Shown here piece by piece: positions 1 to 19,939 of a stretch of 64,000 nucleotides of DNA (positions are counted from its first letter, which is position 1; the number at the start of each line of letters is the position of its first letter). Under the pieces are notes generated by a model. The model made no database searches. It was not told the DNA's origin and saw only the letters and a program-made list of their open reading frames with translations. The stretch covers positions 311,248-375,247 of IMG/VR virus record IMGVR_UViG_3300038345_000251; one strand, 5' to 3'. A program made the translations under genes and the position numbers. The DNA comes from a virus (lineage: Duplodnaviria > Heunggongvirae > Uroviricota > Caudoviricetes).

Positions 1-2
1 CA

Positions 3-620
3 GAAGAACATTGGTATGAAAATAAAGTAAAAGCATCTAATTCAATATTTAAATTTGAAAATATTTCTAAAAAAGAGGCAAGAGAATTAAATCTTTATGA
101 TTATCCAAATATAAACAATCTTGACCAAAACCCAATATTAAGTAGAAATTTATATGGTAATCCAGACGAAATTGAAGCAATAAAATATGTAAATGGATAT
201 TATGGTAAATTAAAACAATTTAGATGTTTCATATTGTTGTTCAATTCTTCTGATGGAATTAATAAAGCATATCAACAACAATCATATTGGCAAGGTGGTA
301 ACAAAAACGAACTTATTATTTGTTTCGGTTTAAAACCTGATAAAACAGTTGAATGGTGTTATGCTTTTTCTTGGGAAGATGACCAACGAATGGCAATTAC
401 TATAATGAACTTATATAGAAACAATGAAAAGTTAAATATTGTTACTTTATCCAATCAAATTATTGAAAATCTTAATAAGTGGAAGCGAAAAGAGTTTTCT
501 GATTTTAAATATATTAAAGTAGAATTAACAAAAACACAATATATTATTTTATTTATATTGACATTGTTAGTTAATATTGGGATGGCGTTGTTTATTATAA
601 TGAATGAGTATGAAAATTAA
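3..620 (+). CDS. hypothetical protein, 5'-partial (reading frame open to window edge; C-terminal hydrophobic helix)
   Basis: Frame is open from nt 3 with no stop until 620. The ORF-track start at 234 is an internal TTG. C-terminus LFILTLLVNIGMALFII is TM-like. Confidence 0.45.
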   Translation, partial: EEHWYENKVKASNSIFKFENISKKEARELNLYDYPNINNLDQNPILSRNLYGNPDEIEAIKYVNGYYGKLKQFRCFILLFNSSDGINKAYQQQSYWQGGNKNELIICFGLKPDKTVEWCYAFSWEDDQRMAITIMNLYRNNEKLNIVTLSNQIIENLNKWKRKEFSDFKYIKVELTKTQYIILFILTLLVNIGMALFIIMNEYEN

Positions 621-657: not shown

Positions 658-1218
658 ATGAAAGTTTTAGTTGTAATTGATTGCCAAAATGATTTTATTG
701 ATGGCAGTCTTAGAAATGAAGAAGCAATTAAGAAAGTTCCTAACATTGTTAAGAAAATTAAGGAAAACGAATGGGATGCAATTTATGTAACCCAAGATAC
801 TCATGGTGAAGATTATCTTACAACACGTGAGGGTAGAAATCTTCCAGTTGTACATTGTGTAAAATATACAGATGGATGGAAGATTAATGAAGACATTAAT
901 AAAGCAATTAAAGACGCTAAATTTAATCGTAATATTAATGTTGTCTATATTCATAAACCAACGTTTGGTTCTAAAACATTGAAGCAAATGATTGAAGAAG
1001 AATTTAAGTACACGAAACCTGAAGAGTTATATATTGAATTTTGCGGTTTTTGTACAGATATTTGTGTGATAAGTAATGTACTTCTTGTTAAAGAAGCACT
1101 TTATGAAAATGCAGATATTACTGTTGATGCTTCTTGTTGTGCAGGTGTAACACCTGAATCACATAATGCAGCACTTCTTACAATGAAGATGTGCCAAATA
1201 AAGGTAATTAATGAGTAA
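658..1218 (+). CDS. pncA: nicotinamidase (PncA), isochorismatase/cysteine-hydrolase family
   Basis: VLVVIDCQNDF, QDTHG, VVHCV (metal-binding D/H/H), IHK (catalytic Lys) and GFCTDICV (nucleophile Cys) align with E. coli PncA motifs. A promoter-like TATATTTG lies 19 nt upstream. Confidence 0.8.
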   Translation: MKVLVVIDCQNDFIDGSLRNEEAIKKVPNIVKKIKENEWDAIYVTQDTHGEDYLTTREGRNLPVVHCVKYTDGWKINEDINKAIKDAKFNRNINVVYIHKPTFGSKTLKQMIEEEFKYTKPEELYIEFCGFCTDICVISNVLLVKEALYENADITVDASCCAGVTPESHNAALLTMKMCQIKVINE

Positions 1219-1600: not shown

Positions 1601-2400
1601 ATGAAAAAAATCAATGTTAACAATTTAATAGAAGAATTAAAAAATGTTCATAATAACAAATATGATTATTCAGAGGTAGAATATAAAAATTGGAGAACCA
1701 AGGTTTGTATAATATGTCCAGAGCACGGAGAATTTTGGCAAACATTATACAATCATGCAAAAGGACAAGGTTGTCCTAAATGTGGAAAAATAAATTGTTC
1801 TAATAAATTGTCATTAACAACAGAAGAATTTATTAAACGTGCAAGAGAAGTTCATGGAGATAAATATGATTATTCTAAAGTTGAATATGTAAATAATCAT
1901 AGCAAAGTATGTATAATATGCCCAGAGCACGGAGAATTTTGGCAAATACCAGCAAACCATTTAAATGGTTGTGATTGCCCTAAATGTAAAAACAATTTTA
2001 AAAAGAATACAGAAGAATTTATTAAACGTGCAAGAGAAGTTCATGGAGATAAATATGATTATTCAAAAGTTAATTATATTAATAACCGAACAAAGGTATG
2101 TATAATATGTCCAGAGCACGGAGAATTTTGGCAAACGCCAAATAAACATTTGTCGGGTCAACATTGTCCTTATTGTACACTAAATAAAAAATTAGAAAAA
2201 ATAGAATTTATTGACAAAGCAAGAGGAATACATGGCAACAGATATGATTATTCAAAAGTTAATTATATTAATAACCGAACAAAAGTATGTATAATATGTC
2301 CAGAGCACGGAGAATTTTGGCAAACGCCAGCAAATCATTTAAGTAATCATGGATGTCCAAAGTGTAAAGAAAAACAAAGTAAACTTGAAAAAGAAATAAA
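1601..2400 (+). repeat. four tandem ~195-bp in-frame coding repeats (e.g. tgtccagagcacggagaattttggcaaac), near-identical to repeats in 44762..45720 and 47900..48800
   Basis: The 29-mer recurs at about 1715, 1916, 2110 and 2297. Stretches of more than 50 bp are identical between 1811-1870, 2011-2070 and 45171-45230. Confidence 0.8.
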
Positions 2401-2719
2401 AAAAATATTAGATGAAGAAAAAATAATATATATTTTTCAATATAAAAAAGAATGGTTAAAATTTAAAAACCAAATGTCTTTAGATTTTTATTTACCTGAT
2501 TATAATATAGCGATTGAATGTCAAGGTGAACAACATTTTAAACCAATATATTATTTTGGTGGAGAGAAAGAATTTAAAATTGTCCAAAAAAGAGATAAAT
2601 TAAAAAAAATGTTATGTGAAAAAAATAATATTAAACTTTTATATTATAGTGATAAAAAGTATGATAACGAAATAATAACAGAAATAAATGAATTATTAAA
2701 AAGGATAAAAAATGTGTAA
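1601..2719 (+). CDS. homing endonuclease paralog 1: four tandem ~65-aa zinc-ribbon modules ([23 protein letters not shown]) plus a C-terminal Vsr/DUF559-like PD-(D/E)XK nuclease domain ([20 protein letters not shown])
   Basis: Internal repeats are seen in both protein and DNA. The C-terminal motif matches the DUF559/Vsr-like endonuclease signature. Paralogs lie at 44762 and 47817. Confidence 0.7.
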
Positions 2720-3638
2720 AGGTATTGTTTTAGCTGGTGGCACAGGTAGTAGACTTTTTCCTATAACAAAAGGTATACCAAAATCTTTAATTCCATTATA
2801 TGACAAACCCATTGTATATTACCCACTATCAGTACTTATGCTTGCTGATATAAAGGATATACTTATTATAACTACACCCGAAGATGCAGATTCTTTCAAA
2901 CGTCTTTTAGGTGATGGTTCTAATTTTGGTGTTAATTTATCTTATGCTGAACAGCCAACACCAGGTGGTTTAGCACAAGCATTTATTATTGGTGAAGAAT
3001 TTATTGGTGATGATGCATCATGTATGATTCTTGGTGACAATATTTTTCAAGGACCTGGTTTAAGGGAAAAATTATTATTTGCAAAATCTATTGCTGAAGG
3101 TGAAGTAGTTCCAAGAGCAGTTGTTTTCGGTTATGAAGTTTCAGACCCAGAAAGATATGGAGTTGCTGAAATTTCAAGAGTGACTGAAGATGGTATGTTA
3201 TGGAGTGTTCATTCACTTGAAGAAAAACCATTAAAACCAAAATCAAATATTGCGGTTACTGGATTGTATTTTTATCCACCAGGTGTATCTGAAATTGCTA
3301 AAATAATTAAACCATCTGAGAGAGGTGAACTTGAAATAACAGAACTTAATAGGTTATATAACAATACTGTTGCAAATGATGGCTATACGATGTTAGATTT
3401 GATTCTACTTGGTAGAGGTTTTGCTTGGCTTGATACAGGAACATTTGACAGTTTATCTGAAGCATCTAATTATATTGAAACTATACAGAAAAGACAGGGT
3501 TTAAAAGTATCATGTCTTGAAGAGATTGCATATAATAATGGATGGATTACTAAAGATAAATTGTGGGAAATTGGAGAATCAATGCAAAAAAATGAATATG
3601 GTAAATATCTTATGAAACTTGCATACAAATCAGTTTAA
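2712..3638 (+). CDS. rmlA: glucose-1-phosphate thymidylyltransferase (RmlA/RfbA)
   Basis: N-terminus [43 protein letters not shown] closely matches the RmlA signature. Length is 308 aa. Confidence 0.85.
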
Positions 3639-3683
3639 TAAAATATTTATATATAAATAATTAGATAAAAAAAGTATTTATAT

Positions 3684-5156
3684 ATGGCTGGTTTTGTAAA
3701 AAGAAATTGGGGTGGAGCACCTGCTAAACCACAGCAAGCACAAGGAGCAGCAAATGGTCCAACTTCAACTAACCCTTGGAGTTTAAGTGTTAAATTTGCT
3801 GATTATACAGAGAAAGGAAATTTGGAATTTAAAGTTTCAGGATTTTATTTTAAAGATGTTTTCACATTAAACAATATAAGTCCTAATGTATTTAAATTTA
3901 GTCAAAACGGTAAAACTTTAATTGTAACTTCTAAAGTTGATGCATTTTTACAAGTATTACCTACGTTAGAAAGTGAGTTAAAAAAACTTAATCACTATAA
4001 AGATAGTTCTATTGACAATTTTTCTGATAACATCGAAAAAGCGTTACAATTAGCACCAACACAAGAAGAACTTAAAGCAAATAATACTGCTATTATAACT
4101 AACTGGAAACAGTTACTTCAGACATTAAATGACCCTGAAACTAAACAGAAATTCTTGTTATTCCAAACAACATACACTTGTCAAAGTGATTGGAAAAAAT
4201 GTGCATTGTCACCTGCAAATGTTGTAGAAGTTAGACTTGCTGACCCTTTGGCAAGTTTCGTTACTGATGCTAACACGTGGTTAACAGAATTTAACAGAAA
4301 AGTACAACCTGGTTCACCTTTTGTTATTATTACAAAACCTGATACTCCTTGGCCACCAAGAGATAAACTTGATGCTGAAGCAAAAAAACAAGGTTATAAA
4401 AACTATAGTGCAATGATGAATGATGAAAATGGTAGAAAATTAGCATTTGGTATCAGAAAAGACCTTGCACAACGTTTGAATTTAGCAACTAGTTTTTATA
4501 AAGCAAAAGTTTATGACGTTAGATTTACCGTTCCTATTGACCCAAGTAACGATAAATTCCTTAAAGTTGCTAACTTAGTTAATAACTTAACAGGTGAACT
4601 TAACCAAGCAGCAAAAGAATATCTTAGAGTAAAAGCATATAAAGAAGGTGCACCACAACCTGATGTTGATGCTAAAAAAGAAGGTATTCAAACACCTGAA
4701 GAATTATTAAAATATAAAGACTTCATTATTAAAAAGTGTGCTGCAAAGAAAATTACAATTCCTGATGTTGGTTCAACAGAAGATGTAATTGCAAATGCTA
4801 TTTATACATACGCATATAAGACAGCTGAAGCATATAATGTATTGTCACCTAAAGCTAAACAAGCTTTTGCATCAGCCGTTCTTTATAGTGTTGCTAAAAC
4901 AATTAACTTAAAAACTTCACAAGTATCACAAGCAGTAAAAATCTTTGATTCTTTAAGTACTGAAGAAGTTGAAGAAGTTGCACAAAAAACATTTGAAACA
5001 TTTAAACAATTGGCTAATTTCTCAGTTAGTGAAGCAGTTGGTGATGGTTTAATGTCATTTGATGATTATCGTAATTTACTTATGAGTTTGTTACCAAACA
5101 AAAATAGAATCAAGAAAAATTTCGATGATTTTAATGATAGAATGAACAATATTTAA
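3684..5156 (+). CDS. hypothetical protein (490 aa)
   Basis: Long ORF with phage-like codon usage. No motif recognised. Confidence 0.55.
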   Translation: MAGFVKRNWGGAPAKPQQAQGAANGPTSTNPWSLSVKFADYTEKGNLEFKVSGFYFKDVFTLNNISPNVFKFSQNGKTLIVTSKVDAFLQVLPTLESELKKLNHYKDSSIDNFSDNIEKALQLAPTQEELKANNTAIITNWKQLLQTLNDPETKQKFLLFQTTYTCQSDWKKCALSPANVVEVRLADPLASFVTDANTWLTEFNRKVQPGSPFVIITKPDTPWPPRDKLDAEAKKQGYKNYSAMMNDENGRKLAFGIRKDLAQRLNLATSFYKAKVYDVRFTVPIDPSNDKFLKVANLVNNLTGELNQAAKEYLRVKAYKEGAPQPDVDAKKEGIQTPEELLKYKDFIIKKCAAKKITIPDVGSTEDVIANAIYTYAYKTAEAYNVLSPKAKQAFASAVLYSVAKTINLKTSQVSQAVKIFDSLSTEEVEEVAQKTFETFKQLANFSVSEAVGDGLMSFDDYRNLLMSLLPNKNRIKKNFDDFNDRMNNI

Positions 5157-5158: not shown

Positions 5159-7147
5159 ATGTACACATATACAGTAGGTAAAAAAAGTCAAATTGATAGT
5201 GTTTTCACTAATGGTTATAGTAGACAGTTTGCAGGTGATGCAGAAGGTGTAGACTATGGTATTGGCGTGTATTGTAATATATCATATAATGATAAAGAAA
5301 CACCAAGAGAATCATTAGGAAGATATAGTAGAGACCCACAAAATAATTGTATATTTAGAAATGAATTAGAAGGTGGTCTTGACAGATTTTTGATTTTTGA
5401 TGAACGTTTTGCTAGAAAGGTATATGGGGAACATTATTTCATTAAAGACCAAGTGTATCGTCTTTTTCCTAAAGATGTTGCTGATGATTTGTGGAAAGAT
5501 ATAAAGTGGTATATGTCTTTAGATACTTCTTCACAAGGCAATGGAAACCATATGAATGGTAGAACCTCTGGCTTATTACAATTTATGATGTCAAAACATC
5601 TTAGAGGAAATGTTGCAAACCCTAAAAAATATGAAAACATTTTTGGAAAATATAACGTTAGAGGTGCAATATATAGAGGTAGAGGAGATGGTTTTTGTAT
5701 GGTTGTTTATAACTACGATGAAATTAAACCTGTTGCATATTCAGTTGATGGTGGTAGAACATATCTTAAGAAAAACGTAAAATATACATATCCTGATATT
5801 GTAAGAAGATTAAGACATTTATATAAAAAAATAGATTTTCCAATTGCGATACAAGGTGATGATAGGATATATTATTTTGCAAAAGTTCAGAAAAAGAATG
5901 GTAAATGGAACTATGTTGATGCTACAACACAAGAAGAAATATCTGTAGTAGATTTTGATTCTTGTACATCTATTAATCCTAATAATGGAATGTTTCAAAT
6001 TGAATATAATGGTAAATTCTATAATGCTTGTCCCGATGGGTTTTTTGATAGTGAAGATGAAGGACATACATGGGATGAATTACCATTATTTGATGAAGAC
6101 ATTGATAGTTTAGATGAAGATACAAAACGTTTTAATAAACTTTTGGTAGAAAGTTTTAAAAATGTTTTAAGTGATTATAATATGTTTTCAGAAATCTTGA
6201 ACGAAATTCGTGATGAGGAAAACGATGTAGATGAAGTTTCATATTATCATTATAATGTTCCTGATTTGTCTTATTTTGATTCTTCAGATGTTCCATCTAT
6301 CTATCACGTAACCAAAGAAGGAAATGTTGAAGATATTTTTAGAAATGGCTTTGATAGAGAATTCTTAAGTGTATATGCTTATGGGAAAGGTGTATATGCT
6401 GCCTATGATGTTGCAAATGGTAGAAATCAAATTCCTAGTTATGGAACAGCAATGTTACAGTTAAAACTTATTGGTGGTTATGATAGATTTTTAATTTTTC
6501 CTAATAGTGATAACACTAAAAGACTTGCAATTAAATATTATGGAAATAATTATGATATTTTAAGCCAATTGAAATCTTTTTTACCTGAAAGGATTGCAAT
6601 AGAAGTATATGGCGCATGTGGCAGTAGTATTGAAGGATATTCACATTACGCAAGTAAATATCATATACGTGGTGCTGTCTATCAATGGGGAAGAACAATC
6701 GCAGTATTACCATATGACTTTTCAACAGTTGTTCCATATGCTGTTTCATATGATGGTGGTAAAACATTTAAAAAGAAAATTAATAATAGAAGTTGGCAAC
6801 GTTTTTTAACAAATATTGATGTTGAATGGAGATATAGCAGACAATATAAAAAAATCGAAAAACCAATTTTAGGATATAATAGTGAAGGACAAGAAACTGG
6901 TTACGCAAAAGTTCAGAAAAAAAATGGTAAATGGAATTACATTGACATTCAGACAGGTAATGAAGAATTACCATTTGATTTTGATTCATTAACAAGTCTT
7001 AATCCAGAAACAGGTGATTTCCAAGCAGAATATAAAGGAAATATATTAAATGCTTGTTTTGACGGATTTTATGATAACGATGGTGATGGTCATACATGGA
7101 ATGAACTTGATTCATATCTTAATAATCAAAATGATTTAGATTTATAA
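5159..7147 (+). CDS. internally duplicated protein (two ~330-aa halves). Each half carries a PARP-like ADP-ribosyltransferase motif set and a C-terminal WG-like beta module
   Basis: The halves align (GGLDRFLIF / GGYDRFLIF; YAKVQKKNGKWNY in both). Second half: YHVTKEGNVEDIFRNGF resembles the PARP1 HGSRTTNFAGILSQGL motif with matching H/N/I/G spacing, and YGKGVYAAYD resembles FGKGIYFAD. First half: YNYDEI resembles the catalytic YNEYIV motif. Confidence 0.4.
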   Translation: MYTYTVGKKSQIDSVFTNGYSRQFAGDAEGVDYGIGVYCNISYNDKETPRESLGRYSRDPQNNCIFRNELEGGLDRFLIFDERFARKVYGEHYFIKDQVYRLFPKDVADDLWKDIKWYMSLDTSSQGNGNHMNGRTSGLLQFMMSKHLRGNVANPKKYENIFGKYNVRGAIYRGRGDGFCMVVYNYDEIKPVAYSVDGGRTYLKKNVKYTYPDIVRRLRHLYKKIDFPIAIQGDDRIYYFAKVQKKNGKWNYVDATTQEEISVVDFDSCTSINPNNGMFQIEYNGKFYNACPDGFFDSEDEGHTWDELPLFDEDIDSLDEDTKRFNKLLVESFKNVLSDYNMFSEILNEIRDEENDVDEVSYYHYNVPDLSYFDSSDVPSIYHVTKEGNVEDIFRNGFDREFLSVYAYGKGVYAAYDVANGRNQIPSYGTAMLQLKLIGGYDRFLIFPNSDNTKRLAIKYYGNNYDILSQLKSFLPERIAIEVYGACGSSIEGYSHYASKYHIRGAVYQWGRTIAVLPYDFSTVVPYAVSYDGGKTFKKKINNRSWQRFLTNIDVEWRYSRQYKKIEKPILGYNSEGQETGYAKVQKKNGKWNYIDIQTGNEELPFDFDSLTSLNPETGDFQAEYKGNILNACFDGFYDNDGDGHTWNELDSYLNNQNDLDL

Positions 7148-7263: not shown

Positions 7264-8391
7264 TTAAGTACCTATGAGATTCTGTTTCTCTAAGGCTATT
7301 GTTTTTATATTAATGGCAGCATTAATATCTCTATCATGTACCTTTCCACATTCAGGACATATCCACTCTCTATCTGATAATTTCAAATCATTGTTGATAT
7401 ATCCACAATTGTGGCATAACTTGCTACTTGGTTCAAACCTGCCTATAAATACAATGTTATTCCCATACCATTCAGATTTATATTCCAACTCTCTAATAAA
7501 TTCACTCCAAGCAGCATCAGTAATTGCTTTTGCAAGATTATGATTTTGTTCCATTCCCTTTACATTCAAGTCCTCTAAACATATGGTATCAAATCTCTTA
7601 ACTAAATCTGTAGATAACTTCTGTATGAAATCAGTTCTTTGATTTGTTATTTTCCTATATGTTTTTGCTACTTTTATCCTTGCTTTTTCACGGTTTTTAC
7701 TACCTTGCTTGGTTCTTGCAAAGCATTTTTGCCAATGAGCAAGCATCTTTTGTAATTTATCCAAATGTTTTGGATTACTGTATTTAGTGCCATCAGATAA
7801 TATGGCATAATCCTTTATTCCTAAATCAATACCAACTGCTGTTTCTGTTGCAATTGGCTTCTTTTGTTGGTTAGGTTGTTGATTATCAATCAACACTGAT
7901 AACCAATAAGTACCACATTTATCTTTAGATACAGTTACAGTACCTTGTTTACAAGTATTTTGATTCCAAGTTCTGTTCTTACATAAATCAACCCAACCCA
8001 ATTTAGGCAACTTTACTTTCCAATTATCAAAATCAAAATGTACTGAATTAATAAACTTAATACTATCTTTAGATTTCTTTTTTGATTTAAAGTTAGGGTA
8101 TTTTGTTTTTTTTCTAAAGAAAGCAGTGAATGCTGATTCAAGATTTCTAAGTGACTGTTGTAGTCCTTCATTAGTACAGGTATTCAACCATTGATAATCT
8201 TGTTGTTGTTTAAGTTGTGTTAGTTGTTTAGCAAGATGCATATATGTCAATGAACTACCATTTTCTTTATAAGCATTTGTTTTTTGTTCCAATCCCCAGT
8301 TGTAAATGAATCTAGTACAGCCAAAGAATTGAGATAACAATGCTTGTTGTTTATCATTTGGTTTTATTTTGAACTTATATGCTTTAATCAT
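7264..8391 (-). CDS. tnpB: TnpB (OrfB) RNA-guided nuclease of the IS200/IS605 family
   Basis: N-terminus MIKAYKFKIKPNDKQ. C-terminal zinc finger CHNCGYINNDLKLSDREWICPECGKVHDRDINAAINIK. The true start is at 8391, since the ORF-track start at 8466 adds an unlikely leader. Confidence 0.85.
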   Translation of the reverse strand: MIKAYKFKIKPNDKQQALLSQFFGCTRFIYNWGLEQKTNAYKENGSSLTYMHLAKQLTQLKQQQDYQWLNTCTNEGLQQSLRNLESAFTAFFRKKTKYPNFKSKKKSKDSIKFINSVHFDFDNWKVKLPKLGWVDLCKNRTWNQNTCKQGTVTVSKDKCGTYWLSVLIDNQQPNQQKKPIATETAVGIDLGIKDYAILSDGTKYSNPKHLDKLQKMLAHWQKCFARTKQGSKNREKARIKVAKTYRKITNQRTDFIQKLSTDLVKRFDTICLEDLNVKGMEQNHNLAKAITDAAWSEFIRELEYKSEWYGNNIVFIGRFEPSSKLCHNCGYINNDLKLSDREWICPECGKVHDRDINAAINIKTIALEKQNLIGT

Positions 8392-8536
8392 AATGTATAT
8401 ATGTATTACTATATATAAATAGTAAATTAAAGTCGAAAAGTCAATATTTACTTTAATTATTTTCAAAAAATTAAGGTGGATTTAGTGTAAACATGTATAT
8501 TATTTCCATATTTAATTTATGTTAATGCAGGGAATG

Positions 8537-8568
8537 TTTGATTCTCTGCATTTTTTTTTGTACTTTTG
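8537..8568 (+). promoter_or_regulatory. promoter: TTTG (8537-8540), N20, TACTTTTG (8561-8568)
   Basis: Matches the Bacteroides sigma-A consensus TTTG-N19-21-TAnnTTTG, upstream of rmlC. Confidence 0.55.
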
Positions 8569-8579
8569 TAAAAAAAGTT

Positions 8580-9185
8580 ATGTTATCTTATAATCAAATA
8601 TGTGGTTTTAATGGTTTATATATCTTAGAACCAAAAAAGTTTCTTGATGATAGAGGGTATTTTCAAGAATTATTTAACAAAGACGAATTTGAAAACTATA
8701 CTAACATTAAATTTCAACCTGTTCAAGAAAATGAAAGTTCATCTAAGGCAGGTGTTGTTAGAGGATTACATTTTCAAAAAGGTGATTTTGAACAAGCAAA
8801 ACTTGTAAAATGTTTTAGAGGTGCAATTATTGATGTCGCACTTGATTTAAGAAAAGATTCTTTTTCTTATGGAAAATTGTTCAGTACAGTACTTTCAGAA
8901 AAGAACAATAAGCAATTGTTTATCCCTAGAGGCTATGCACATGGTTTCATAGCACTTGATGAAAATACTGATAATGTAATTAGATATTTAACTGATAATC
9001 CATATTCGCCTAATGATGAAGATGGTGTTTTATTTGATAGTGAATATCTTAATCTTGCTTTTAAAAATGCTATTTGTGATGAATTTCCAAAAGGAATAGC
9101 AGAAAAATTTTTGAATTATGATTTAACGTTTTCCGAAAAAGATTTAACATTCAAAGAATGGGATAGTTACTATGAGAAAGGATAA
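8580..9185 (+). CDS. rmlC: dTDP-4-dehydrorhamnose 3,5-epimerase (RmlC), cupin fold
   Basis: RGLHFQ and FIPRGYAHGF motifs. The start at 8580 lies just downstream of a TTTG-N20-TACTTTTG promoter at 8537-8568. The ORF-track start at 8538 would include the promoter. Confidence 0.8.
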   Translation: MLSYNQICGFNGLYILEPKKFLDDRGYFQELFNKDEFENYTNIKFQPVQENESSSKAGVVRGLHFQKGDFEQAKLVKCFRGAIIDVALDLRKDSFSYGKLFSTVLSEKNNKQLFIPRGYAHGFIALDENTDNVIRYLTDNPYSPNDEDGVLFDSEYLNLAFKNAICDEFPKGIAEKFLNYDLTFSEKDLTFKEWDSYYEKG

Positions 9186-10038: not shown

Positions 10039-10965
10039 ATGATTAGAATTTTAGGAGAAGAAATCAAGGTGAATCATTTTCCAGATGGTTCACAAATGCT
10101 GTTAAATTTTGAACAAATTGATAGAATTGTAGGATATGCTCGTGAAAATGAAACGATGTACTCAATATCTATTCATTGGAATTATGAAAATGATGAAGAA
10201 TTAGTTACTTTGTTTTATCTTGTAAAACATATTCGTCAATGTGTTAAAGATTGTGCATTAGACTTGCATATGAGTTATATACCAAATGCAAGACTTGATA
10301 GAATTAAGAAAAATAGCGAAGTGTTTACATTAAAATATTTTGCTGATTTTATTAATTCTTTGAACTTTAGATATGTATATGTTTTTGACCCGCATTCTGA
10401 TGTAAGTGCTGCATTAATTAATAATATTAATATAATGTCACCCGAAAATGCTATTGATAAAGCATTTGATGGTATATGCCGTGATTTGTTTGGATGCGCA
10501 TGGAATATAAAGGATAAATATGAAAACATAGTGTTATATTATCCTGATTACGGTGCAAAGAAACGTTATTCAAGTCTTAAAAAGTTTGAGAAATTTAAAC
10601 TTGTTTATGGTTGTAAAACCAGGGATTGGGAAACAGGTAAGATTACAGGTTTGAAAATCTGTGATAAAGACGGTATCGTAATTGATTATTCTGAAGATAA
10701 AGAGATACTTAAAGATAAAGTTGTCTTAATGATTGATGATATTGTTTCTTATGGTGGCACACTTGCTTATAGTGCTGACGCACTTAAAGAATATGGTACA
10801 AAAGATATTTATGCATATGCATCCCATACTGAAAACAGTATTCTTGATAAAGAAAAGAGTACACTTCTTAAGAGACTTGAAAATGGAACAGTTAAACGTT
10901 TGTTTACAACAAATAGTATTTATCGTGGTGAAAATGAACATATTGAAGTAAATAATATTTTCTAA
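10039..10965 (+). CDS. ribose-phosphate pyrophosphokinase (Prs)-like enzyme, candidate ADPR-PP synthetase (Adps) of a NARP1-like NAD reconstitution pathway
   Basis: FPDGS, IPNARLDR, FDPHS, YPDYGA and VVLMIDDIVSYGGTLAYSADALKEYGTKDIYAYASH are collinear with E. coli Prs motifs. Confidence 0.7.
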   Translation: MIRILGEEIKVNHFPDGSQMLLNFEQIDRIVGYARENETMYSISIHWNYENDEELVTLFYLVKHIRQCVKDCALDLHMSYIPNARLDRIKKNSEVFTLKYFADFINSLNFRYVYVFDPHSDVSAALINNINIMSPENAIDKAFDGICRDLFGCAWNIKDKYENIVLYYPDYGAKKRYSSLKKFEKFKLVYGCKTRDWETGKITGLKICDKDGIVIDYSEDKEILKDKVVLMIDDIVSYGGTLAYSADALKEYGTKDIYAYASHTENSILDKEKSTLLKRLENGTVKRLFTTNSIYRGENEHIEVNNIF

Positions 10966-12038: not shown

Positions 12039-13007
12039 ATGGAAAAGATTGTTTTAGAAGAGTTATTAAATGGTGCTACTGTAACGTTGCCTGAATTTAC
12101 AAGTCATAAAAACATTGTTTATTGTTGTGAAAATTGTTTAAATGGAAAAGTTTATATTGGAGAAACTAAAAGAAGTTTAAGAGAAAGGTGGATTGACCAT
12201 AAAAATTGTATGAATAAAACGTGTAAAAGGAATATAAAAGCCGCTATTTATGATGCAATAAGAAAATATGGTACAACAAACTTTTATGTTTACATATTAG
12301 AAGAAAATTTAGAAAACGATGATAAAAGAAAAGAAAGAGAAAAGTATTGGATTTCTAAATTTAATGCATTTATTGATGCTGAAAACAGTAATGGTTATAA
12401 CATGACCACAGGAGGCTATTGTGAATCCAAAATCTCAAAACAAAAAGTAAAGAGAGAAACAAAAACATGTATTGAAAAATATGGTGTGTTACCAATAAAC
12501 ACGAAAGAAAGTAGGAAAAAGGCTTTAGAAACAAATAGGAAAAATCACAACGGTATTCTTGCTTTTCAAGCAGACATTTATAGAAAAAAAGGTAAAAAAA
12601 CACAAATTGAAAAGTATGGTATGTTAGCTGTTCATTTGCCTGAAAACAAAGAAAAAGCAAAAAAGGCAATGAAAGAATATAAAGAAAAAAATGGTGTTTT
12701 ACCTTTTAATACAAAAGAAGCAATAGAAAAAGCACAAAAGGTTGCTCCTTTATATAGAATGATAAGTTGTATAAACAGACATTTGAAAATATTAAAGGAA
12801 AAAAGTTTGAAAATTAATGCAACAAACTATGTGTTTGAAACAAATGATGTTAAACATATGTGGCAACAACATGTTCCTCATGTGTTAAATAAACTTGATG
12901 AACTAAGAAAAATTGATAAATGGAGTAATGATATGGAGAATATATTTTCTAATATCATTTATGATAAAAAGGAAAAAGGAATTAAAAAAATTAAGTTTAA
13001 ATATTAA
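12039..13007 (+). CDS. GIY-YIG homing endonuclease (Seg-like) with repeated C-terminal DNA-binding motifs
   Basis: VYIGETKRSLRERWIDHKN is a GIY-YIG core with Arg and His. Repeats KYGVLPINTKESRKKA and KNGVLPFNTKEAIEKA. Confidence 0.7.
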   Translation: MEKIVLEELLNGATVTLPEFTSHKNIVYCCENCLNGKVYIGETKRSLRERWIDHKNCMNKTCKRNIKAAIYDAIRKYGTTNFYVYILEENLENDDKRKEREKYWISKFNAFIDAENSNGYNMTTGGYCESKISKQKVKRETKTCIEKYGVLPINTKESRKKALETNRKNHNGILAFQADIYRKKGKKTQIEKYGMLAVHLPENKEKAKKAMKEYKEKNGVLPFNTKEAIEKAQKVAPLYRMISCINRHLKILKEKSLKINATNYVFETNDVKHMWQQHVPHVLNKLDELRKIDKWSNDMENIFSNIIYDKKEKGIKKIKFKY

Positions 13008-13012: not shown

Positions 13013-14638
13013 ATGAAAATAAATCCATTATTGTTATGTGATTTTTACAAAGCGGTTCATAACATGCAAATACCGCAGAACATGGTAAAATCTGTAAGTT
13101 ATTTTACACCTCGTAGTTCACGTATTAAAATTTGGGACCAGGTAGTTAATTTTGGTTTGCAAGCATTTTGTAAAACTTATCTTATTGATTATTTTAATAA
13201 GAATTTTTTTGAAAGACCAAAAAAAGAAGTTGTAAAAGAATATCGTAAATACATGGAAGATACTCTTGGTGTTGGCGTTTGTGATTTTACTAAGATTGAA
13301 AAACTCCATGATTTAGGTTATCTACCTATTGAAGTTGTTGCTCTTCCTGAAGGTATGTTGGTAGATATTCACGTACCTATGTTTGGTATCACTAATACTC
13401 ACCCTGACTTTGCTTGGCTTGGACAAGCTCTGGAATCCCTTATTTCCGCAGAACTCTGGTATCCTATGGTATGTGCTACTGTTGGTCACACATACCGTCA
13501 AATCGTGGATAAATGGTATTCAAAGACATGTGATGATAATGTACCTCGCAGACGTGCACTTGGTAATTTTGATTTTCGTGGAGACCAAGGACTTGATGCA
13601 GCACTTAAAGCAGGTTCTGCTTGGTGTTTGTCTTTTGTAAATACTGCAACTGTACCTGTAATTCCTTATCTTGAAAAGAATTATAACTGTAATTCTTCAA
13701 TAGAAGAAGTTGGATTTGGTGCTGTTTCTACTGAACATTTTGTAATGTGTTCTAACAGTGCTATTGATACCCTCAATAATCCAGATTATGAATATGCTGA
13801 CATCGACCCTTATCGTGAACGTATATTTTTGAAGAAACTTCTTACTGAACTTTATCCTAACACTTCATTCAGTTGTGTATGTGATAGTTATGATTATTGG
13901 AATGTTGTGGAAAATATTCTTCCAACATTGAAAGAAGAAATCCTTAACCATAATGGTTGTTTACTTGTACGTGGTGATAGTGGTGATTGTGTAAAGGTTG
14001 TTACTGAAACTGTATTCAAACTTTGGGATATTTTTGGTGGTACTGTTAATAGTAAAGGGTATAAAGTACTTAATCCACACGTTAAAGCACTTTATGGTGA
14101 TAGTATTACTATTCAACGTGCAGATAAGATTTATTCTATTCTTGAACAGAATGGTTTTGCTGCACAGAACGTAAGTCTTGGTGTTGGTTCTTTCAGTATG
14201 CATTGTATTGAAGAAGTTGCTGATGTAACAGTAAGAAACTATGTTCCTGCTACCGATGGTTGTACTTCTGTTGAGGTTACTACAGGTGAAGCAGTTATTC
14301 TTTCTCCTTTCACTAGAGACACGTTTGGAATGGCGATTAAAGCTGTCTATGGTGAGTTTTTGAATGAGGATGGCAGTGTTACTAAACTTTCAATATTTAA
14401 AGACCCTAAGACTGACAGAGAATCAGGTGGTGGTAATTTCAAGAAATCACAGAAAGGATGTTGTAAAGTATTTTGGCGTGATAAATGGAACAGACGTATT
14501 ACATTTGAAGATGGTCTAACGTGGGATGAGGCTTCAACACCTGATAATTTAATGCAACCTATTTTCAAAGATGGTAAAATGATAGAAGAGCAAACCCTAT
14601 CTGAAATTCGTTATAGATTGAATAATGGAAAGTTCTAA
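13013..14638 (+). CDS. NAMPT-family phosphoribosyltransferase (NadV-like), or Namat-like nicotinamide-ADPR transferase if paired with the Prs-like gene
   Basis: Extensive collinearity with human NAMPT: DFYKAVH, IEVVALPEG, FDFRG, CDSYD, VRGDSGD, NSKGYKVL and FKDP...KK. Confidence 0.85.
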   Translation: MKINPLLLCDFYKAVHNMQIPQNMVKSVSYFTPRSSRIKIWDQVVNFGLQAFCKTYLIDYFNKNFFERPKKEVVKEYRKYMEDTLGVGVCDFTKIEKLHDLGYLPIEVVALPEGMLVDIHVPMFGITNTHPDFAWLGQALESLISAELWYPMVCATVGHTYRQIVDKWYSKTCDDNVPRRRALGNFDFRGDQGLDAALKAGSAWCLSFVNTATVPVIPYLEKNYNCNSSIEEVGFGAVSTEHFVMCSNSAIDTLNNPDYEYADIDPYRERIFLKKLLTELYPNTSFSCVCDSYDYWNVVENILPTLKEEILNHNGCLLVRGDSGDCVKVVTETVFKLWDIFGGTVNSKGYKVLNPHVKALYGDSITIQRADKIYSILEQNGFAAQNVSLGVGSFSMHCIEEVADVTVRNYVPATDGCTSVEVTTGEAVILSPFTRDTFGMAIKAVYGEFLNEDGSVTKLSIFKDPKTDRESGGGNFKKSQKGCCKVFWRDKWNRRITFEDGLTWDEASTPDNLMQPIFKDGKMIEEQTLSEIRYRLNNGKF

Positions 14639-14750: not shown

Positions 14751-15878
14751 ATGAAGAAATTAATGACGATGATTGCAATCGCAATCTTAACAATCGGTAC
14801 AGCTTTTGCACAGGAAAACGCTAATCGTAGCGACAGCAATACAGTTGTACGTGGACCTTATTTGACTAATAACAACTTTTTTGACAATACATTCATTGGT
14901 GTTGGTGGTGGAGTAAACACCTTTGTCGCAAAAGACATCAACTTTTTACCAATAACTCCTGGTATTAATGCAGAAGCATTCCTTGGTAAATGGTACACTC
15001 CTACTATTGGTACACGTATTGGTTACAAAGGTTTAACCAATGTCGTTGAACAGAATACTAAATATTGGCAGCATTATGTACACGGTGATTTTATGTGGAA
15101 TCTTTCAAATGCTCTTGGTGGATATAAAGAAACAAGATTTTGGGATGTTATTCCTTATGTTACCGCAGGTGCATATGACATTGTAAATCAAGCAAACGGT
15201 CACAACCTTGAATATGGTGCAGGTGCAGGTATCTATAATAAGATTAGACTTACTGATAGAGTTAACCTTTACCTTGACATCAATACTCTTGTTGTAAGAG
15301 CAAATGCTTATCTTAAAACCCCTCATCGTTTTGGTTTCACACCAAGTGCAAGTTTTGGTATTGTCATCAATCTTGGTAAGAACACTGGTTTCAAACGTTC
15401 ATCAACCGTTCTTGCAAACTATTGTACAGTAAGTGACTATAACGATGTTGTAGCAAAGAACAAAGAATACGAAAGCAAAGTAAACTGTCTTGAAAATCAG
15501 AACAAAGGACTTCAGGCAACTGTTGATTCACTTAATAAGGTAAAACCTGAAATTAAGGAAATTGTTAAAGAAGTTCCTGTAAATGAAGTTTCAGTTTATT
15601 TTGAAAAAGGTAAATATGTTGTATCAGAAAAAGAACTTTCACACCTTATTGACTATGCTAAATCAGTAGACAGTACAATCGTTGTTAAAGTTATTGGTTC
15701 AGCAGATTCTAAAGAAGGTAGTGTAGAAAGAAATCAATTCCTTTCAGAACAGAGAGCAAAAGTAGTTAAAGATATTCTTATCAATAAATTTGGTTTTGAT
15801 GAAAAGAACATTGTAGTTGAAACTGCTATTGATGTTGCTGATACTCCAGAAAGAAGTAGAGTTGCTATTGTAAAATAG
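14751..15878 (+). CDS. OmpA-family outer-membrane protein (signal peptide, predicted beta-barrel, OmpA C-terminal domain)
   Basis: Signal peptide MKKLMTMIAIAILTIGTAFAQE. C-terminal SEQRAKVVKDIL... in an OmpA_C-like domain. GC-richer than its neighbours. Confidence 0.7.
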   Translation: MKKLMTMIAIAILTIGTAFAQENANRSDSNTVVRGPYLTNNNFFDNTFIGVGGGVNTFVAKDINFLPITPGINAEAFLGKWYTPTIGTRIGYKGLTNVVEQNTKYWQHYVHGDFMWNLSNALGGYKETRFWDVIPYVTAGAYDIVNQANGHNLEYGAGAGIYNKIRLTDRVNLYLDINTLVVRANAYLKTPHRFGFTPSASFGIVINLGKNTGFKRSSTVLANYCTVSDYNDVVAKNKEYESKVNCLENQNKGLQATVDSLNKVKPEIKEIVKEVPVNEVSVYFEKGKYVVSEKELSHLIDYAKSVDSTIVVKVIGSADSKEGSVERNQFLSEQRAKVVKDILINKFGFDEKNIVVETAIDVADTPERSRVAIVK

Positions 15879-15905
15879 AGTTAATGAATTTAGTCAAATA
15901 AAGTT

Positions 15906-15938
15906 AAACCCCATTTTCTTACGAAAGTGGGGTTTTTT
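15906..15938 (+). terminator. rho-independent terminator (aaacccca...tggggttttttg), between convergent genes
   Basis: 7-bp GC-rich stem plus a U-tract. Confidence 0.7.
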
Positions 15939-15959
15939 GATTAACGCGATTTTGGATAA

Positions 15960-16388
15960 TTACTTGAAATTTGCTCTATAAAGATATTTATTTGCTTTTT
16001 CAAGTATATCGTCAATAACAGCACAGATTGCATTATCGTTATCATTCTTAACAGAAGTGGCTTTATCAATAAGTTCATTTAAGATAGATTTAACATCTTC
16101 TGATGATGAAGGACTTGTACCATTAATCTTTAATGTAATGTTTTTATTACTGATAAATGCTTCAGATAATGTATCTTCCCATTCAAATAAGTTATTAATA
16201 ATCTCATCTGTTAAAAGATGAAGTGCATTATTTCTTGTATTCCAATGAATTTCTCTTACAGGTAATTGTGCGTTATGAAGGAAAGAAATCAAATCAATAA
16301 CTTTATCGTTATTTTCTGCTTCTTCTTTAATTATTCGTTTAACACTTTCGGAAATTATTTGTTTTAAGTCTTGTTCAGTAAGTTTCAT
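15960..16388 (-). CDS. hypothetical protein
   Basis: ORF on the - strand, convergent with the OmpA-like gene. Shares the terminator at 15906-15938. Confidence 0.5.
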   Translation of the reverse strand: MKLTEQDLKQIISESVKRIIKEEAENNDKVIDLISFLHNAQLPVREIHWNTRNNALHLLTDEIINNLFEWEDTLSEAFISNKNITLKINGTSPSSSEDVKSILNELIDKATSVKNDNDNAICAVIDDILEKANKYLYRANFK

Positions 16389-16479
16389 AGTATATATATT
16401 TTTATATATAAATAGTTATGAAAATTGTTTTGGCATATTATTTGATAATGATGTTTATAAAAAATAAATGTGTTTTTAT

Positions 16480-16953
16480 ATGAAAAAAATGTATTATAAT
16501 TTAAAGGCAAATCTTCTTGTTAGGAAGATTATGTTTTTTGAGTTTCCTGAGATTCTTAACAAGTATTATCAGTATTGTGATGGTACTTTGTCTGACAGTG
16601 ATTTTTCAGCCTTTAAGTCTGAAAATGGTGTGATTGATATTTATTACAAAAACTTTCATGTTCTTATTGTTAATAATAGTAAGGACAAAATTGTTAGTGT
16701 TAACTTAAAGAAAGATGAAGATAATTGGGTTATTAATAAAAACGATTATTCTAATCCAATTACCAAAACCTTTGAAATTTATCGTTGGTATGATGTAACC
16801 GTTTATGGTGAGGATAGGCACTTTAGTGAACATTATATAGAAGGTACTTGGAATGAGTATTTCTATAAAACACTTAAGTCACTTAATGCTACTATTAGTA
16901 ATATGACTGATAAAAATAAAATGTTAGCAGAATATTCACATATTAAAAAATAA
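16480..16953 (+). CDS. hypothetical protein
   Basis: ORF followed by a bidirectional terminator. Confidence 0.45.
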   Translation: MKKMYYNLKANLLVRKIMFFEFPEILNKYYQYCDGTLSDSDFSAFKSENGVIDIYYKNFHVLIVNNSKDKIVSVNLKKDEDNWVINKNDYSNPITKTFEIYRWYDVTVYGEDRHFSEHYIEGTWNEYFYKTLKSLNATISNMTDKNKMLAEYSHIKK

Positions 16954-16954
16954 A

Positions 16955-16985
16955 GAAAGCCGTAGGTTTCTACGGCTTTTCTTTT
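16955..16985. terminator. bidirectional terminator (agccgtag gttt ctacggct + T-tracts on both strands)
   Basis: Perfect 8-bp stem. Lies between the convergent 16480 (+) and 16984 (-) genes. Confidence 0.7.
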
Positions 16986-17768
16986 ATTCTAATCCACATA
17001 TTTTCTTTATTGCATTTACATGTATTCTTGCAATCATTTCCCTACCCCAATCACTTCGTAAAAACTCACAATCTTCTTTATTATCCATAAATAGATTTTC
17101 TGTTAAAATTGCAGGACAAAGTGATTTATAAATAATTGTGAAGTTTTCTTCATAATCTGGGTCTCCATCTGACATATCTTTTCTGGTTGTCATATTAAAA
17201 CGAGGAAGAAGGTTTTCTGCTTCGTTATAAAAAATTGTTGCAATTGCATCTGATTTAGTTACACCTTTGGTTGTGTAAACACTCCATCCTCTTGCTTTAC
17301 ACCATCCACCATTAGCACCTGCATTTGCATGAACAGAAATAAGTAAACAATTAGATGTTCCATATTTCTTACAGAAATTATTTACTCTATTTACTCTAGT
17401 TGTAAGTTTAACATCAACATCAACTTCAGGAGTAATAATTTCATATTTAATTCCTAATTTTTTCAATTCTTTTGCAATTCTTGAAACAACGTCTCTGTTA
17501 AATTCATATTCAAAGAATTGATACCCATCATTCCAAACAGGACTTCTTTTACCTGGGGTTGTACTTGCATGGCCATTGTCTAATAGAATAACTGTACCAT
17601 TGTAATTTCCTTTTACTAACATTTCGTTATTGTTTTCTTCATTATTTATTGGTTGTGTGTTTCCACTTGTTTCAATATTAGTTGTTTCTTGTTCAACTGG
17701 TTTTTCTTCTTTTTTTGAAAACAATTGTTTTAAAAGGCTCAAAAGTAAATCAAATATTTTTCCCATAA
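16984..17768 (-). CDS. N-acetylmuramoyl-L-alanine amidase (Amidase_3) endolysin
   Basis: LLDNGHASTTPGKRSP and ISVHANAG motifs. The start at 17768 (MGKIFD) is preferred over the ORF-track start at 17931, which adds an implausible hydrophobic leader. Confidence 0.65.
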
Positions 17769-17886
17769 AACATATTATTTTATATATAAATAGTTTTTTA
17801 TAGTAAAATGAATTTTTTGTACTATTTATAATTAAAATAAAGATAATAATTGGTTTTTTAACCCTTAGTATAAAACATTTATATAA

Positions 17887-18273
17887 ATGAAACGAGTAAC
17901 GATACATAAAAGAAGTAGTGTAGCCGACCAAATGCCAGCAAGTTTGGAATATGGCGAGATTGCAGTTAACTATTCAGCAAATAAAGAGTTCCTTTCAATC
18001 AGAAATTCAAGTAATAATATGGTAATATTCCCATCATCAGGTATTATTACCACAGCTATCAATACAGCAGTAAATGCAGAAAAGACAAGAGCGCAGGATG
18101 CTGAATCAACATTACAAACGAATATTGATAATGAAGCAACTGCACGTGCAAATAAAGATACTGAATTAGAAAATGCAATCAACGAATATAAGACAACTGT
18201 TGCTGCTGCTTTAAATGAATTACAGAACAGAACAACAAGTCTTGAATCAAGAGTAACTGCACTTGAACCTTAA
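17887..18273 (+). CDS. coiled-coil protein, possibly a fibre or structural component
   Basis: C-terminal heptad-like TELENAINEYKTTVAAALNELQNRTTSLESRVTALEP. Terminator at 18297-18331. Confidence 0.4.
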   Translation: MKRVTIHKRSSVADQMPASLEYGEIAVNYSANKEFLSIRNSSNNMVIFPSSGIITTAINTAVNAEKTRAQDAESTLQTNIDNEATARANKDTELENAINEYKTTVAAALNELQNRTTSLESRVTALEP

Positions 18274-18296
18274 CTGCCATAATCAAAAACTAATAT

Positions 18297-18331
18297 AAGC
18301 AAGTCAATTTTTATTGGCTTGCTTTTTTTTT
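18297..18331 (+). terminator. terminator (aagcaag...cttgctt + T9)
   Basis: 7-bp stem with a long T-run. Confidence 0.5.
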
Positions 18332-18353
18332 ACAATATTTTTTTGTACTTTTG
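18322..18353 (+). promoter_or_regulatory. promoter -7 box TACTTTTG (18346-18353)
   Basis: tttgTACTTTTGtag lies upstream of 18376. Confidence 0.4.
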
Positions 18354-18375
18354 TAGCAGATAAAAAAGTATATGT

Positions 18376-18987
18376 ATGAAAATGACATTTGCAATTGATT
18401 GTGATGAAGTATTACGTTCATTATTGTCCAATATGATTTCATTATATAATAGAGAGTTTAATGAAAATATTGAATATGATGATGTAAAAGATTTTGTTGT
18501 TGATGTATCTTTTCCTAAGATACAGGAAACTACTGGTATAACAGCCTCACAGTGGTTTTTCCAAGACCATAGTACTGAATTATTTATGGAATCAGAAGCA
18601 TTACCTAAAGTAAAAGAAGCAATAGAAATACTTAAAGAATTTGGTGATGTCATTATTGTAACATATCAAAAGACATATAAAAATAAAATAGAAACTTTAA
18701 ATTGGTTAGAAAAACAGGGTATTTTTCCTGATGGTATCTGTTTTCTTAAAGATAAAACTTTGATTCATACTACTTTCTTCATTGATGATAATGATTGGAA
18801 TTTTAATGGATGTAATGCCCTTATGGGTATTCTTATTGATGCACCATATAATAAAGATATTGATATAAATGAATTAAAAGAAAAAAGTAATTGTAAAAAA
18901 ATGTATCGTTATCATTCATTATATGAATTTGCATGTAGTATTAAAAAAATAACAAACGTTATAAAACTTGCCGAAAATGGAATATAA
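18376..18987 (+). CDS. HAD-like hydrolase, possibly a 5'(3')-deoxyribonucleotidase family member
   Basis: N-terminal FAIDCDEVL resembles HAD motif I (DxDGVL). Confidence 0.35.
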   Translation: MKMTFAIDCDEVLRSLLSNMISLYNREFNENIEYDDVKDFVVDVSFPKIQETTGITASQWFFQDHSTELFMESEALPKVKEAIEILKEFGDVIIVTYQKTYKNKIETLNWLEKQGIFPDGICFLKDKTLIHTTFFIDDNDWNFNGCNALMGILIDAPYNKDIDINELKEKSNCKKMYRYHSLYEFACSIKKITNVIKLAENGI

Positions 18988-19750
18988 GAATTGGAAAGAA
19001 TTATATATAGAAAACAGAAGTTTAATTGACTTCGAATTCAAAAATCGTCTTTATGATGTTTTAAATAAACTTCTACAAAAGATTGATTACTTTCAAAATG
19101 AGGAACATAAAGAAATTGATGGTGGAGAACCTTATTCAGTAAATCAACCACATAGAGATAACATAGAGAAGTTAGAGAAATTCTACAGACCTTTGTATAA
19201 CTATATCAATACTGTTTCATTGCCATTAATGGAACAGCATAAGACTTATTTAGACAAAATAAGACATGAATTTGTTGATTTAGTTTTTCCTGAACTTACA
19301 GAAGACGGAATAAACAAAATGAGAGGTAAACCACATTGGTATGAGGATTATGTTAGAACCTGTAGAAGAGCATACGATTTATCTCAAATGTTAGAAGCAA
19401 TTTTCAGATATTCATATGAATTAGGTGCGACTAATATTGATGCAGAACCAGAAGATAAATACAATCAAAAAGAGTTTTCTTGGGATGAAGGAACATTCTA
19501 TGAAAAGGTCAGAAAATTACATCTTTCTCGTATGCAATCGTATGGAAAAAATACTATTTTTGGAAAAATGCTTGCTTCTATTGTTGATATGGGTACAAGA
19601 ATGGGTTATGACCAAGCAATTAAAGATGGATTAAGTGAAGAAGAAGCGCATAAAAAGAGTTATGATGTTGGTATGCAACAAGGAATAGATTTCTTAAAAC
19701 AATGTTTTAAAACCGAAGATAATGACAGCCAAAATGACAACCAAAAGTAA
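18968..19750 (+). CDS. hypothetical protein
   Basis: ORF. Confidence 0.5.
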   Translation: MPKMEYKNWKELYIENRSLIDFEFKNRLYDVLNKLLQKIDYFQNEEHKEIDGGEPYSVNQPHRDNIEKLEKFYRPLYNYINTVSLPLMEQHKTYLDKIRHEFVDLVFPELTEDGINKMRGKPHWYEDYVRTCRRAYDLSQMLEAIFRYSYELGATNIDAEPEDKYNQKEFSWDEGTFYEKVRKLHLSRMQSYGKNTIFGKMLASIVDMGTRMGYDQAIKDGLSEEEAHKKSYDVGMQQGIDFLKQCFKTEDNDSQNDNQK

Positions 19751-19937
19751 AACTTTAAAAGCATCAGAATTAATAGAAAAATTAGTTAAAATTATTTCTA
19801 TTTACGGAGATTTAGATGTATTTGTTGATGATTTCTCTTATATAACAGACGTTTACAAAAATGATGTTGATATAAACGAATGGGAAGAATCATCATGGAT
19901 TCAAATAGACACTGATTATGATTTAGGAGAAGAATAG
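19722..19937 (+). CDS. hypothetical small acidic protein
   Basis: ORF. Confidence 0.35.
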   Translation: MTAKMTTKSKTLKASELIEKLVKIISIYGDLDVFVDDFSYITDVYKNDVDINEWEESSWIQIDTDYDLGEE

Positions 19938-19939
19938 AT

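Follow-up and report, generated by a model that had tools for sequence, protein, structure and literature searches.

A tandem-duplicated PARP-like protein and its ArdC-like neighbor in an uncultured jumbo phage

Phage-encoded ADP-ribosyltransferases (ARTs) are front-line tools of host takeover. Catalogues of these enzymes include PARP-type and H-Y-D-type members, of which, to our knowledge, almost none has a known target. The locus presented here lies in a stretch of 64,000 nucleotides (positions 311,248 to 375,247 of IMG/VR record IMGVR_UViG_3300038345_000251, a virus of the Caudoviricetes), hereafter the window, and consists of gene Y, an ATG-initiated open reading frame of 662 codons (5159..7147, + strand) whose product is a tandem-duplicated PARP-like ART-fold protein, and of its upstream partner, gene X, which encodes a 490-aa protein and ends 3 nt before Y (3684..5156, + strand). 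Several Y homologues are found on contigs of 300-390 kb, with an identical protein on a 392,823-bp contig, and the window, whose GC content is about 29%, carries phage-type genes, i.e., those for a helicase, an amidase, homing endonucleases and an intein; its source is therefore an uncultured jumbo phage.

A duplicated unit with a PARP-like fold

The internal duplication of Y, recognized in an earlier reading of the sequence (the original prediction), is real, since residues 1-329 and 330-662 align end to end over about 330 aa with 34% identity (E=2e-45). The 63 homologues of Y, 100% to 32% identical to it, are mostly 640-690 aa long. An exhaustive HMMER search with a profile of the second half (unit 2) additionally retrieves 536 representative clusters at E<=1e-3, counted at 50% identity, 133 of which are found at E<=1e-10. 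Many members of this family are single-unit proteins of 330-390 aa, sharing the core VY[HQR]xT...GF.R...YG.GVY...FLIFD...I.G.I[FY].G..DG.[VC]....DF....P.AYS.D.GKTW, and gene Y of the window thus joins in tandem two copies of a unit that is widespread among phages.

The fold of Y is that of an ART, and is PARP-like. An AlphaFold2 model built from a 30-sequence alignment (mean predicted local distance difference test score, pLDDT, of 83.9; predicted template modelling score of 0.47; disordered linker) contains the split beta-sheet expected from the original prediction, and Foldseek assigns it to PARP10/13/14/15/12 with probabilities of 0.97-1.0, the inactive PARP domains of PARP13, RCD1 and TASOR being among its closest structural matches. 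Profile comparisons lead to the same clade: a search of the PDB with the unit-2 profile gives 20 matches, all of them to the mono-PARPs PARP10/14/15/12/13 (best E=2.6e-5), and PARP10 is the sole match of a profile made from 30 full-length homologues. In addition, hhalign aligns unit 2 to the catalytic domain of PARP14 (in a sequence 100% identical to 4py4_A) with 91.5% probability over S-I-Y-H-V-T...G-F-D-R-E-F...Y-G-K-G-V-Y, thereby pairing H383 with H1682 and Y413 with Y1714. Pfam PARP (PF00644) matches aa 379-420 of the window protein (E=0.004, 17.1-18.5 bits) and the first half of homologue P0027 (E=1.1e-5), and its cutoff is exceeded by homologues P0034, P0042 and P0052 (29.6-30.0 bits). 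The end coordinates of the Pfam matches were of no help, PARP14 itself covering only positions 3-119 of the model.

The two units differ in the residues expected around NAD (nicotinamide adenine dinucleotide). The ART-like domain of unit 2 (aa 376-540, 6284..6778, + strand), delimited from the PARP profile matches and conservation, carries the block S-I-Y-H383-V-T...F-D-R-E-F...Y408-G-K-G-V-Y413-A-A, whose alignment with the His and Tyr blocks of PARP10/14/15 bears out what had been noticed from the letters alone. H383 (6305-6307), on strand 1, aligns to PARP10 and to H1682 of PARP14 and is His in 29 of the 30 full-length homologues (Lys in the remaining one), among which Y382, T385, R400 and Y408 (6380-6382) are kept, and Y413 (6395-6397) and D520 (6716-6718) are invariant. 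As the original prediction had it, the ART-like domain of unit 1 (aa 1-205, 5159..5773, + strand), which is degenerate according to the half alignment, the family alignment and the comparison of residues, lacks this His: T5 occupies the position, which is T, R or S among the same homologues. Unit 1 nevertheless keeps Y33 and Y38 as well as an invariant D177-G178, and its residue homologous to D520 is N or D, N185 in the window. The strand-2 Tyr positions (Y408/Y413 and Y33/Y38) are therefore invariant or nearly so in both units, and a Tyr equivalent to Y413 is present in 345 of 347 units. The ancestral unit likely carried the His, the Tyr pair, 'DG' and 'DF'; relative to it, unit 1 of the window keeps DG, but its His is gone and Asn replaces the Asp of 'DF', whereas unit 2 keeps the His and this Asp and has 'RT' in place of DG.

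Poly(ADP-ribose) polymerases proper (PARP1/2/tankyrase type) require the catalytic Glu of their H-Y-E triad for chain elongation. No conserved Glu is found in Y at position 514 (I/V/T/P), at position 520 (D) or at the variable position 188, so that unit 2 would carry out at most single ADP-ribose transfer, with no polymer formed. Judging from these residues, unit 2 is likely a mono-ADP-ribosyltransferase, with H383 (strand 1), Y408/Y413 (around strand 2) and D520 as its NAD-site residues, and unit 1, with T5 for the His and N185 for the Asp, may be a pseudo-ART used for substrate binding or as a scaffold.

The partner gene and possible delivery with the phage DNA

Gene X is the only invariant neighbor of Y across the loci seen. 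Unannotated genes for X proteins of 490-660 aa lie directly upstream of Y, on the same strand, in the window and in 9/9 other loci whose contig includes the upstream gene; X often abuts or overlaps Y, and the pairing extends to a locus with a single-unit Y. The X proteins that were compared with that of the window are homologous to it (E=1e-84, 1e-14 and 3.5e-62). The possibility that X is a third, diverged copy of Y was discarded, as BLASTP detects no similarity between them. The predicted fold of X, which is mainly helical apart from a small beta domain, appears to resemble that of ArdC, the antirestriction protein of plasmids R388/pSa, which is the closest known system for this partner. ArdC binds single-stranded DNA and travels with transferred DNA.

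In five T4-like loci (L003/L004, L008, L009 and L010), X-Y is found between the terminase and gp13/portal genes, the order being prohead protease, gp23, ..., terminase (opposite strand), X, Y, gp13-like and portal; in L011, the terminase gene (opposite strand) is likewise followed by X and a single-unit Y. The order in the window clade is PncA-like isochorismatase, homing endonuclease, RmlA, X and Y, and then TnpB (opposite strand), RmlC, and the Prs-like and NAMPT-like genes.

The closest published framework is that of Iyer, Aravind and colleagues. Head packaging has been predicted for phage ARTs whose genes adjoin those for terminase/portal; about 44% of phage ARTs are in head-packaging contexts, and PART/PARP is among the commonest viral ART families (PMC9503650). 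In polyvalent proteins, which are delivered by the virion, no protein-modifying domain is more common than the ART; it displays His on strand 1, Tyr on strand 2 and Asp on strand 5, and a protein has 1-12 copies of it. The second most common domain of these proteins is ArdC-N, which is transferred with DNA (PMC5512222). A few jumbo phages are already known to encode PARP-like enzymes (PMC7824862). By analogy, X-Y can be read as a two-gene form of the polyvalent-protein theme, i.e., an ArdC-like DNA-associated protein plus a tandem PARP-clade ART.

From the location of X-Y in the T4-like head/neck block, and from the parallels with T4 Alt and with polyvalent proteins, as regards their ART and ArdC-N domains, we infer that the pair may be packaged. 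More specifically, X-Y would be an early, possibly capsid-packaged effector pair, in which unit 2 is a mono-ART and unit 1 a pseudo-ART, a reading that in our judgement has about an even chance of being correct. Y would act jointly with the product of the abutting X gene; most likely, by analogy, both would be late products that enter the capsid and reach the host together with the DNA, and would then modify a host protein or nucleic-acid target as infection starts.

Several observations weigh against this effector reading. The window protein scores under the Pfam PARP gathering threshold of 26.7 bits; both D520 and I514 fit the third catalytic position by sequence (see below); and a tblastn search of 50,697 deposited phage genome records with gene Y returned zero relatives. 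As to packaging, no homologue of gp23, portal, gp13 or the T4-like terminase is present within the 64-kb window, X-Y of the window clade sits among auxiliary genes and away from head genes, and Y has no N-terminal extension fit for a capsid-targeting peptide. Finally, in a clade with swapped unit order (P0055-P0063, about 740 aa), I or K takes the place of the His in each of the two units, yet P0055, P0057, P0060 and P0062 keep X-Y synteny, as does the single-unit P0107, with R at this position. The conserved role of the family may therefore not need canonical NAD binding.

Such cases bring up the main alternative, tentative and less than probable in our view, in which Y is a non-catalytic pseudo-enzyme whose ART fold, Asp-box and WG-like modules (described below) make it a structural or binding protein of the virion (head, neck or ejection apparatus) or a ligand binder, the His units being evolutionary leftovers. 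This fits the conservation of length, X partner and terminase-gp13/portal position in whole clades that have no His in any unit, the single-unit orthologue with R, the presence of inactive PARP13, RCD1 and TASOR among the nearest structural matches, the typical use of WG and Asp-box modules as binding or structural elements and the score of Y below the Pfam cutoff; it does not fit the retention of H383 in all but one of the 30 homologues, whose identity to Y goes as low as 38%, or the invariance of Y413 and D520 among them, nor the replacement of Asp by Asn mostly where the His is lost, as expected of a working site in the His units, and the near-universal Tyr equivalent to Y413 suggests that the pocket still matters.

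The third site residue and the NAD-related genes

The original prediction had placed Asp where PARPs have their catalytic Glu, and this assignment was not confirmed in that form: D520 never varies among the homologues and is coupled to the presence of the His, but an equally good ungapped match to the C-terminus of PARP14 puts I514 there. In this latter register (A), TIAVLPYDFSTVVPYAVSY of Y is matched to SLFVAFYDYQAYPEYLITF of PARP14, with I514 (6698-6700) on L1782 and D520 on D1788, in agreement with strands 513-518 and 524-530 of the Y model; it would give a PARP10-like H-Y-hydrophobic site. In the register of the original prediction (B), D520 is the third residue of an H-Y-D site. When hhalign is run in global or greedy modes, the alignment of unit 2 to PARP14 has zero confidence past the His/Tyr block.

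Indirect evidence leans to register B, because of the coupling between His and Asp, the variability of the 514 position, the matches to Tox-ART-HYD1 (PF15633) and the existence of H/Y/D ARTs in polyvalent proteins. Among 268 units from 173 family proteins, the position of D520 is Asp in 104/115 units with the His versus 74/153 without it (odds ratio 10, uncorrected for kinship); Asn replaces Asp where the His is lost, and the 39 Thr/Asn units belong to a single lineage. The equivalent of position 514 is I, V, T, N, K or P. The window protein gives no match to Tox-ART-HYD1; its relatives do so weakly, below the 25-bit threshold (P0053 at E=0.022, 15.8 bits, and one single-unit member at E=0.0018).

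Unit 2 could also be an H-Y-hydrophobic mono-ART of the PARP10/14/15 type, with I514 as third residue and D520 as the structural Asp of a 'Y-D-x-Q' turn, an enzyme that may act on phosphorylated nucleic-acid ends while the ArdC-like partner holds the DNA. We consider this unlikely: despite the good ungapped match and its agreement with the model strands, hhalign places the C-terminal part without confidence, the 514 equivalent varies while D520 is invariant and His-coupled, and both the weak Tox-ART-HYD1 matches and the H-Y-D ARTs of polyvalent proteins (PMC5512222) favor an Asp in third position.

In a related scenario, which seems to us quite improbable, a capsid-delivered X-Y would act on nucleic acid rather than protein, X holding the incoming or packaged phage DNA and Y, through its PARP10/15-like unit, ADP-ribosylating either phosphorylated DNA/RNA ends or a host nuclease bound to them, so that the genome is shielded. 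The degenerate ART copy would then be a substrate clamp, and in the His-less clades the scaffold would have turned into a purely structural or binding component of the virion. Should this be true, the ART fold would have been co-opted into phage particle architecture.

Finally, that Y is a cytoplasmic NAD+-consuming ART, coupled to the NAD-salvage genes of the window (PncA-like, Prs-like, NAMPT-like and NadE) and with catalytic residues complemented between halves, is very unlikely: a PncA-like isochorismatase gene and a NAMPT-like gene do lie a few kb from X-Y in the window and in L005 (the isochorismatase gene also in L001), but NAD genes are not found around X-Y in L003/4, L007, L008, L009, L010 or L011, the Glu proposed to be contributed by the first half (E188) is variable and unaligned with D520, and the literature interprets NAD-salvage or reconstitution genes of phages as a means of countering host NAD+ depletion, not as suppliers of phage ARTs (bioRxiv 10.1101/2024.02.11.579819; PMC12774641). 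The underlying suggestion, i.e., that Y-N-Y-D-E-I of the first half provides a Glu complementary to the motifs of the second, fails at the level of the alignment, which pairs D520 with N185 and not with E188, position 188 being A, D, E, K, R or T across the 30 homologues. The proposed functional tie to NAD supply is not supported: NAD genes neighbor Y only in the window clade (window, L001, L005), whereas L007 and the loci of the T4-like clade have none there, and this neighborhood is therefore clade-specific.

The NAD-related genes of the window are those for the PncA-like isochorismatase (658..1218), the Prs-like protein (phrog_619, 10039..10965), the NAMPT-like protein (phrog_448, 13013..14638) and NadE (21260..22195). 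By analogy with NARP1, a phage NAD+ reconstitution pathway made up of Adps and Namat (PMC12774641, PMC13586617), the Prs-like and NAMPT-like pair could correspond to this pathway rather than to classical salvage. A GIY-YIG endonuclease gene (12039..13007, + strand) lies between these two genes; its position is occupied in L005 by a 323-aa gene with no recorded Pfam match. In some loci, further genes related to ADP-ribose, NAD or RNA repair are found up to about 10 kb from X-Y, namely, in L005, Macro with RNA ligase (21134..22007), in L001, Thg1 with RNA ligase (1..331 and 3195..3872), in L007, InPase/Tad6 (5723..6529) and, in L010, NUDIX (17631..18395).

Modules, genomic surroundings and relation to known ARTs

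Each half of Y comprises a lead-in (Y-x-x-Y-D-I-P-T...L-D), an ART core with a helical insert, an Asp-box hairpin and a beta module. The helical inserts interrupt the ART cores past the third strand, at aa 82-164 in unit 1 and aa 449-501 in unit 2. The closing hairpins, absent from the original prediction, are true BNR/Asp-boxes matching S-x-D-x-G-x-T-[WFY]: SVDGGRTYL (5741..5767, + strand; SVDGGRTY, aa 195-202), which closes the ART domain of unit 1 and has a weak Pfam BNR match, and SYDGGKTFK (6746..6772, + strand; SYDGGKTF, aa 530-537), identified by Pfam and by a profile search of the PDB. This search, made with a profile of the C-terminal 40 residues of the unit in an attempt to recover the C-terminal strands of PARP, gave sialidase Asp-boxes only (best E=4.8e-6); the Asp-boxes of gene Y are single motifs and do not form a sialidase propeller.

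The beta modules that follow, at aa 226-300 (YFAKVQKKNGKWNYVD..., 5834..6058, + strand) and aa 567-646 (YAKVQKKNGKWNYID..., 6857..7096, + strand), are WG-repeat-like. The original prediction of a WG-like module in each half is right as regards a beta-rich module after each ART domain, but the window protein has no match to Pfam WG (PF14903) at E<=1; the equivalent region of P0052 matches at E=0.0037 (17.7 bits, under the cutoff of 25.6), and four single-unit relatives match the WG repeat with E values down to 5.9e-28. About 4 kb downstream of X-Y in L007, a giant protein of at least 2535 aa (15396..20022) has WG_beta_rep matches, so that the repeat type of the Y modules has further uses among these phages. 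The units are joined by an acidic, helical, low-confidence linker (aa 301-375, 6059..6283, + strand; pLDDT <50 at aa 313-320 and 339-359), which at its end runs into unit 2 through the lead-in Y-x-x-Y-[DN]-[IV]-P; according to the family alignment, the homologous lead-in forms an N-terminal extension in the P0048 clade.

Elsewhere in the family, P0034/P0036/P0039 (883-884 aa) and the single-unit P0122/P0147 have at their C-terminus an additional domain, about 230 aa long and without Pfam match, which in P0034 bears the motifs 'DVDVP' and 'TPSGGLHIILP'. Ten long relatives (469-1180 aa) scanned with Pfam showed no MuF, portal or effector fusion.

Close to the pair, the dTDP-sugar genes RmlA-like (2712..3638) and RmlC-like (8538..9185) flank X-Y, as they do in L005, and the pair thereby splits the sugar pathway genes. 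A TnpB/IS605 OrfB gene (7264..8466, - strand; OrfB_IS605, Cas12f1-like TNB and helix-turn-helix domains) lies between Y and RmlC, and looks recently inserted, as RmlC directly follows Y in L005 and L006. A scan for promoters and terminators around X-Y was uninformative, yielding fewer sites than shuffled sequence. Three paralogues with DUF4379/DUF723 zinc-finger repeats, homing-endonuclease-like, are encoded at 1601..2719 (+), 44762..46099 (+) and 47817..48812 (-), and a DUF723 gene also adjoins the terminase gene in L003, L008 and L009. The gene at 24320..26179 (+), encoding a 619-aa protein with a LAGLIDADG intein-like insert and an N-terminus that matches an exonuclease PHROG, was rejected as a large terminase, a label that is probably spurious: its PHROG 'terminase large subunit' matches cover the LAGLIDADG intein region, and it has no match to the terminases of the T4-like loci.

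Among known ARTs, the mono-PARPs (PARP10/14/15/12; PF00644; 'PART', H-Y-[EDQ] clade) are about 16-22% identical to Y, the sequence match being confined to the N-terminal 45 residues; Y differs from them by a helical insert of 55-85 aa in place of the acceptor-loop region, by closure with an Asp-box hairpin followed by the WG-like module, and by its tandem arrangement with one degenerate copy. Pseudo-PARPs such as PARP13/ZAP, PARP9, TASOR and plant RCD1 are eukaryotic single domains, whereas the degenerate copy of Y is fused to one with intact motifs. The H-Y-D ARTs of polyvalent proteins (Tox-ART-HYD1/HYD2) are, like Y, phage ARTs in one to many copies, associated with ArdC-N and predicted to be delivered with DNA (PMC5512222), and two relatives of Y weakly match PF15633; however, Y and the ArdC-like X are separate adjacent genes instead of parts of one giant polypeptide, X-Y lacks MuF, peptidase or any other effector domain, and the profile matches of Y favor PARP over HYD models. 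As for T4, Alt is a phage ART packaged in the head and injected, as the effector reading proposes for X-Y, and to this extent the likeness to Alt/ModA/ModB drawn in the original prediction may hold by analogy, for a possibly virion-delivered ART; these enzymes are nonetheless of the R-S-E clade (Arg on strand 1, S-T-S on strand 2 and [QE]-x-E on strand 5), whose motifs are not present in Y, they have no detectable sequence similarity to it, and their genomic context is unlike that of Y.

The Y family hence lies within the known phage H-Y-[EDQ] ARTs, which are multi-copy and tied to DNA-delivery modules; what is unusual is its architecture, in which a PARP-like core with a helical insert is combined with an Asp-box and a WG-like module, the whole occurring either singly or in duplicate in a given protein. 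PHROGs, NCBIfam and PADLOC gave no meaningful match to Y, to either of its halves or to X, and a family of 536 clusters has accordingly gone unseen by these resources, with no relative in cultured-phage records. The series of His, Arg, Lys, Thr and Ile on strand 1, all in one genomic slot, could show when an ART becomes a pseudo-enzyme, and, if X-Y is packaged and injected, the pair would be a PARP-clade counterpart to T4 Alt in uncultured jumbo phages.

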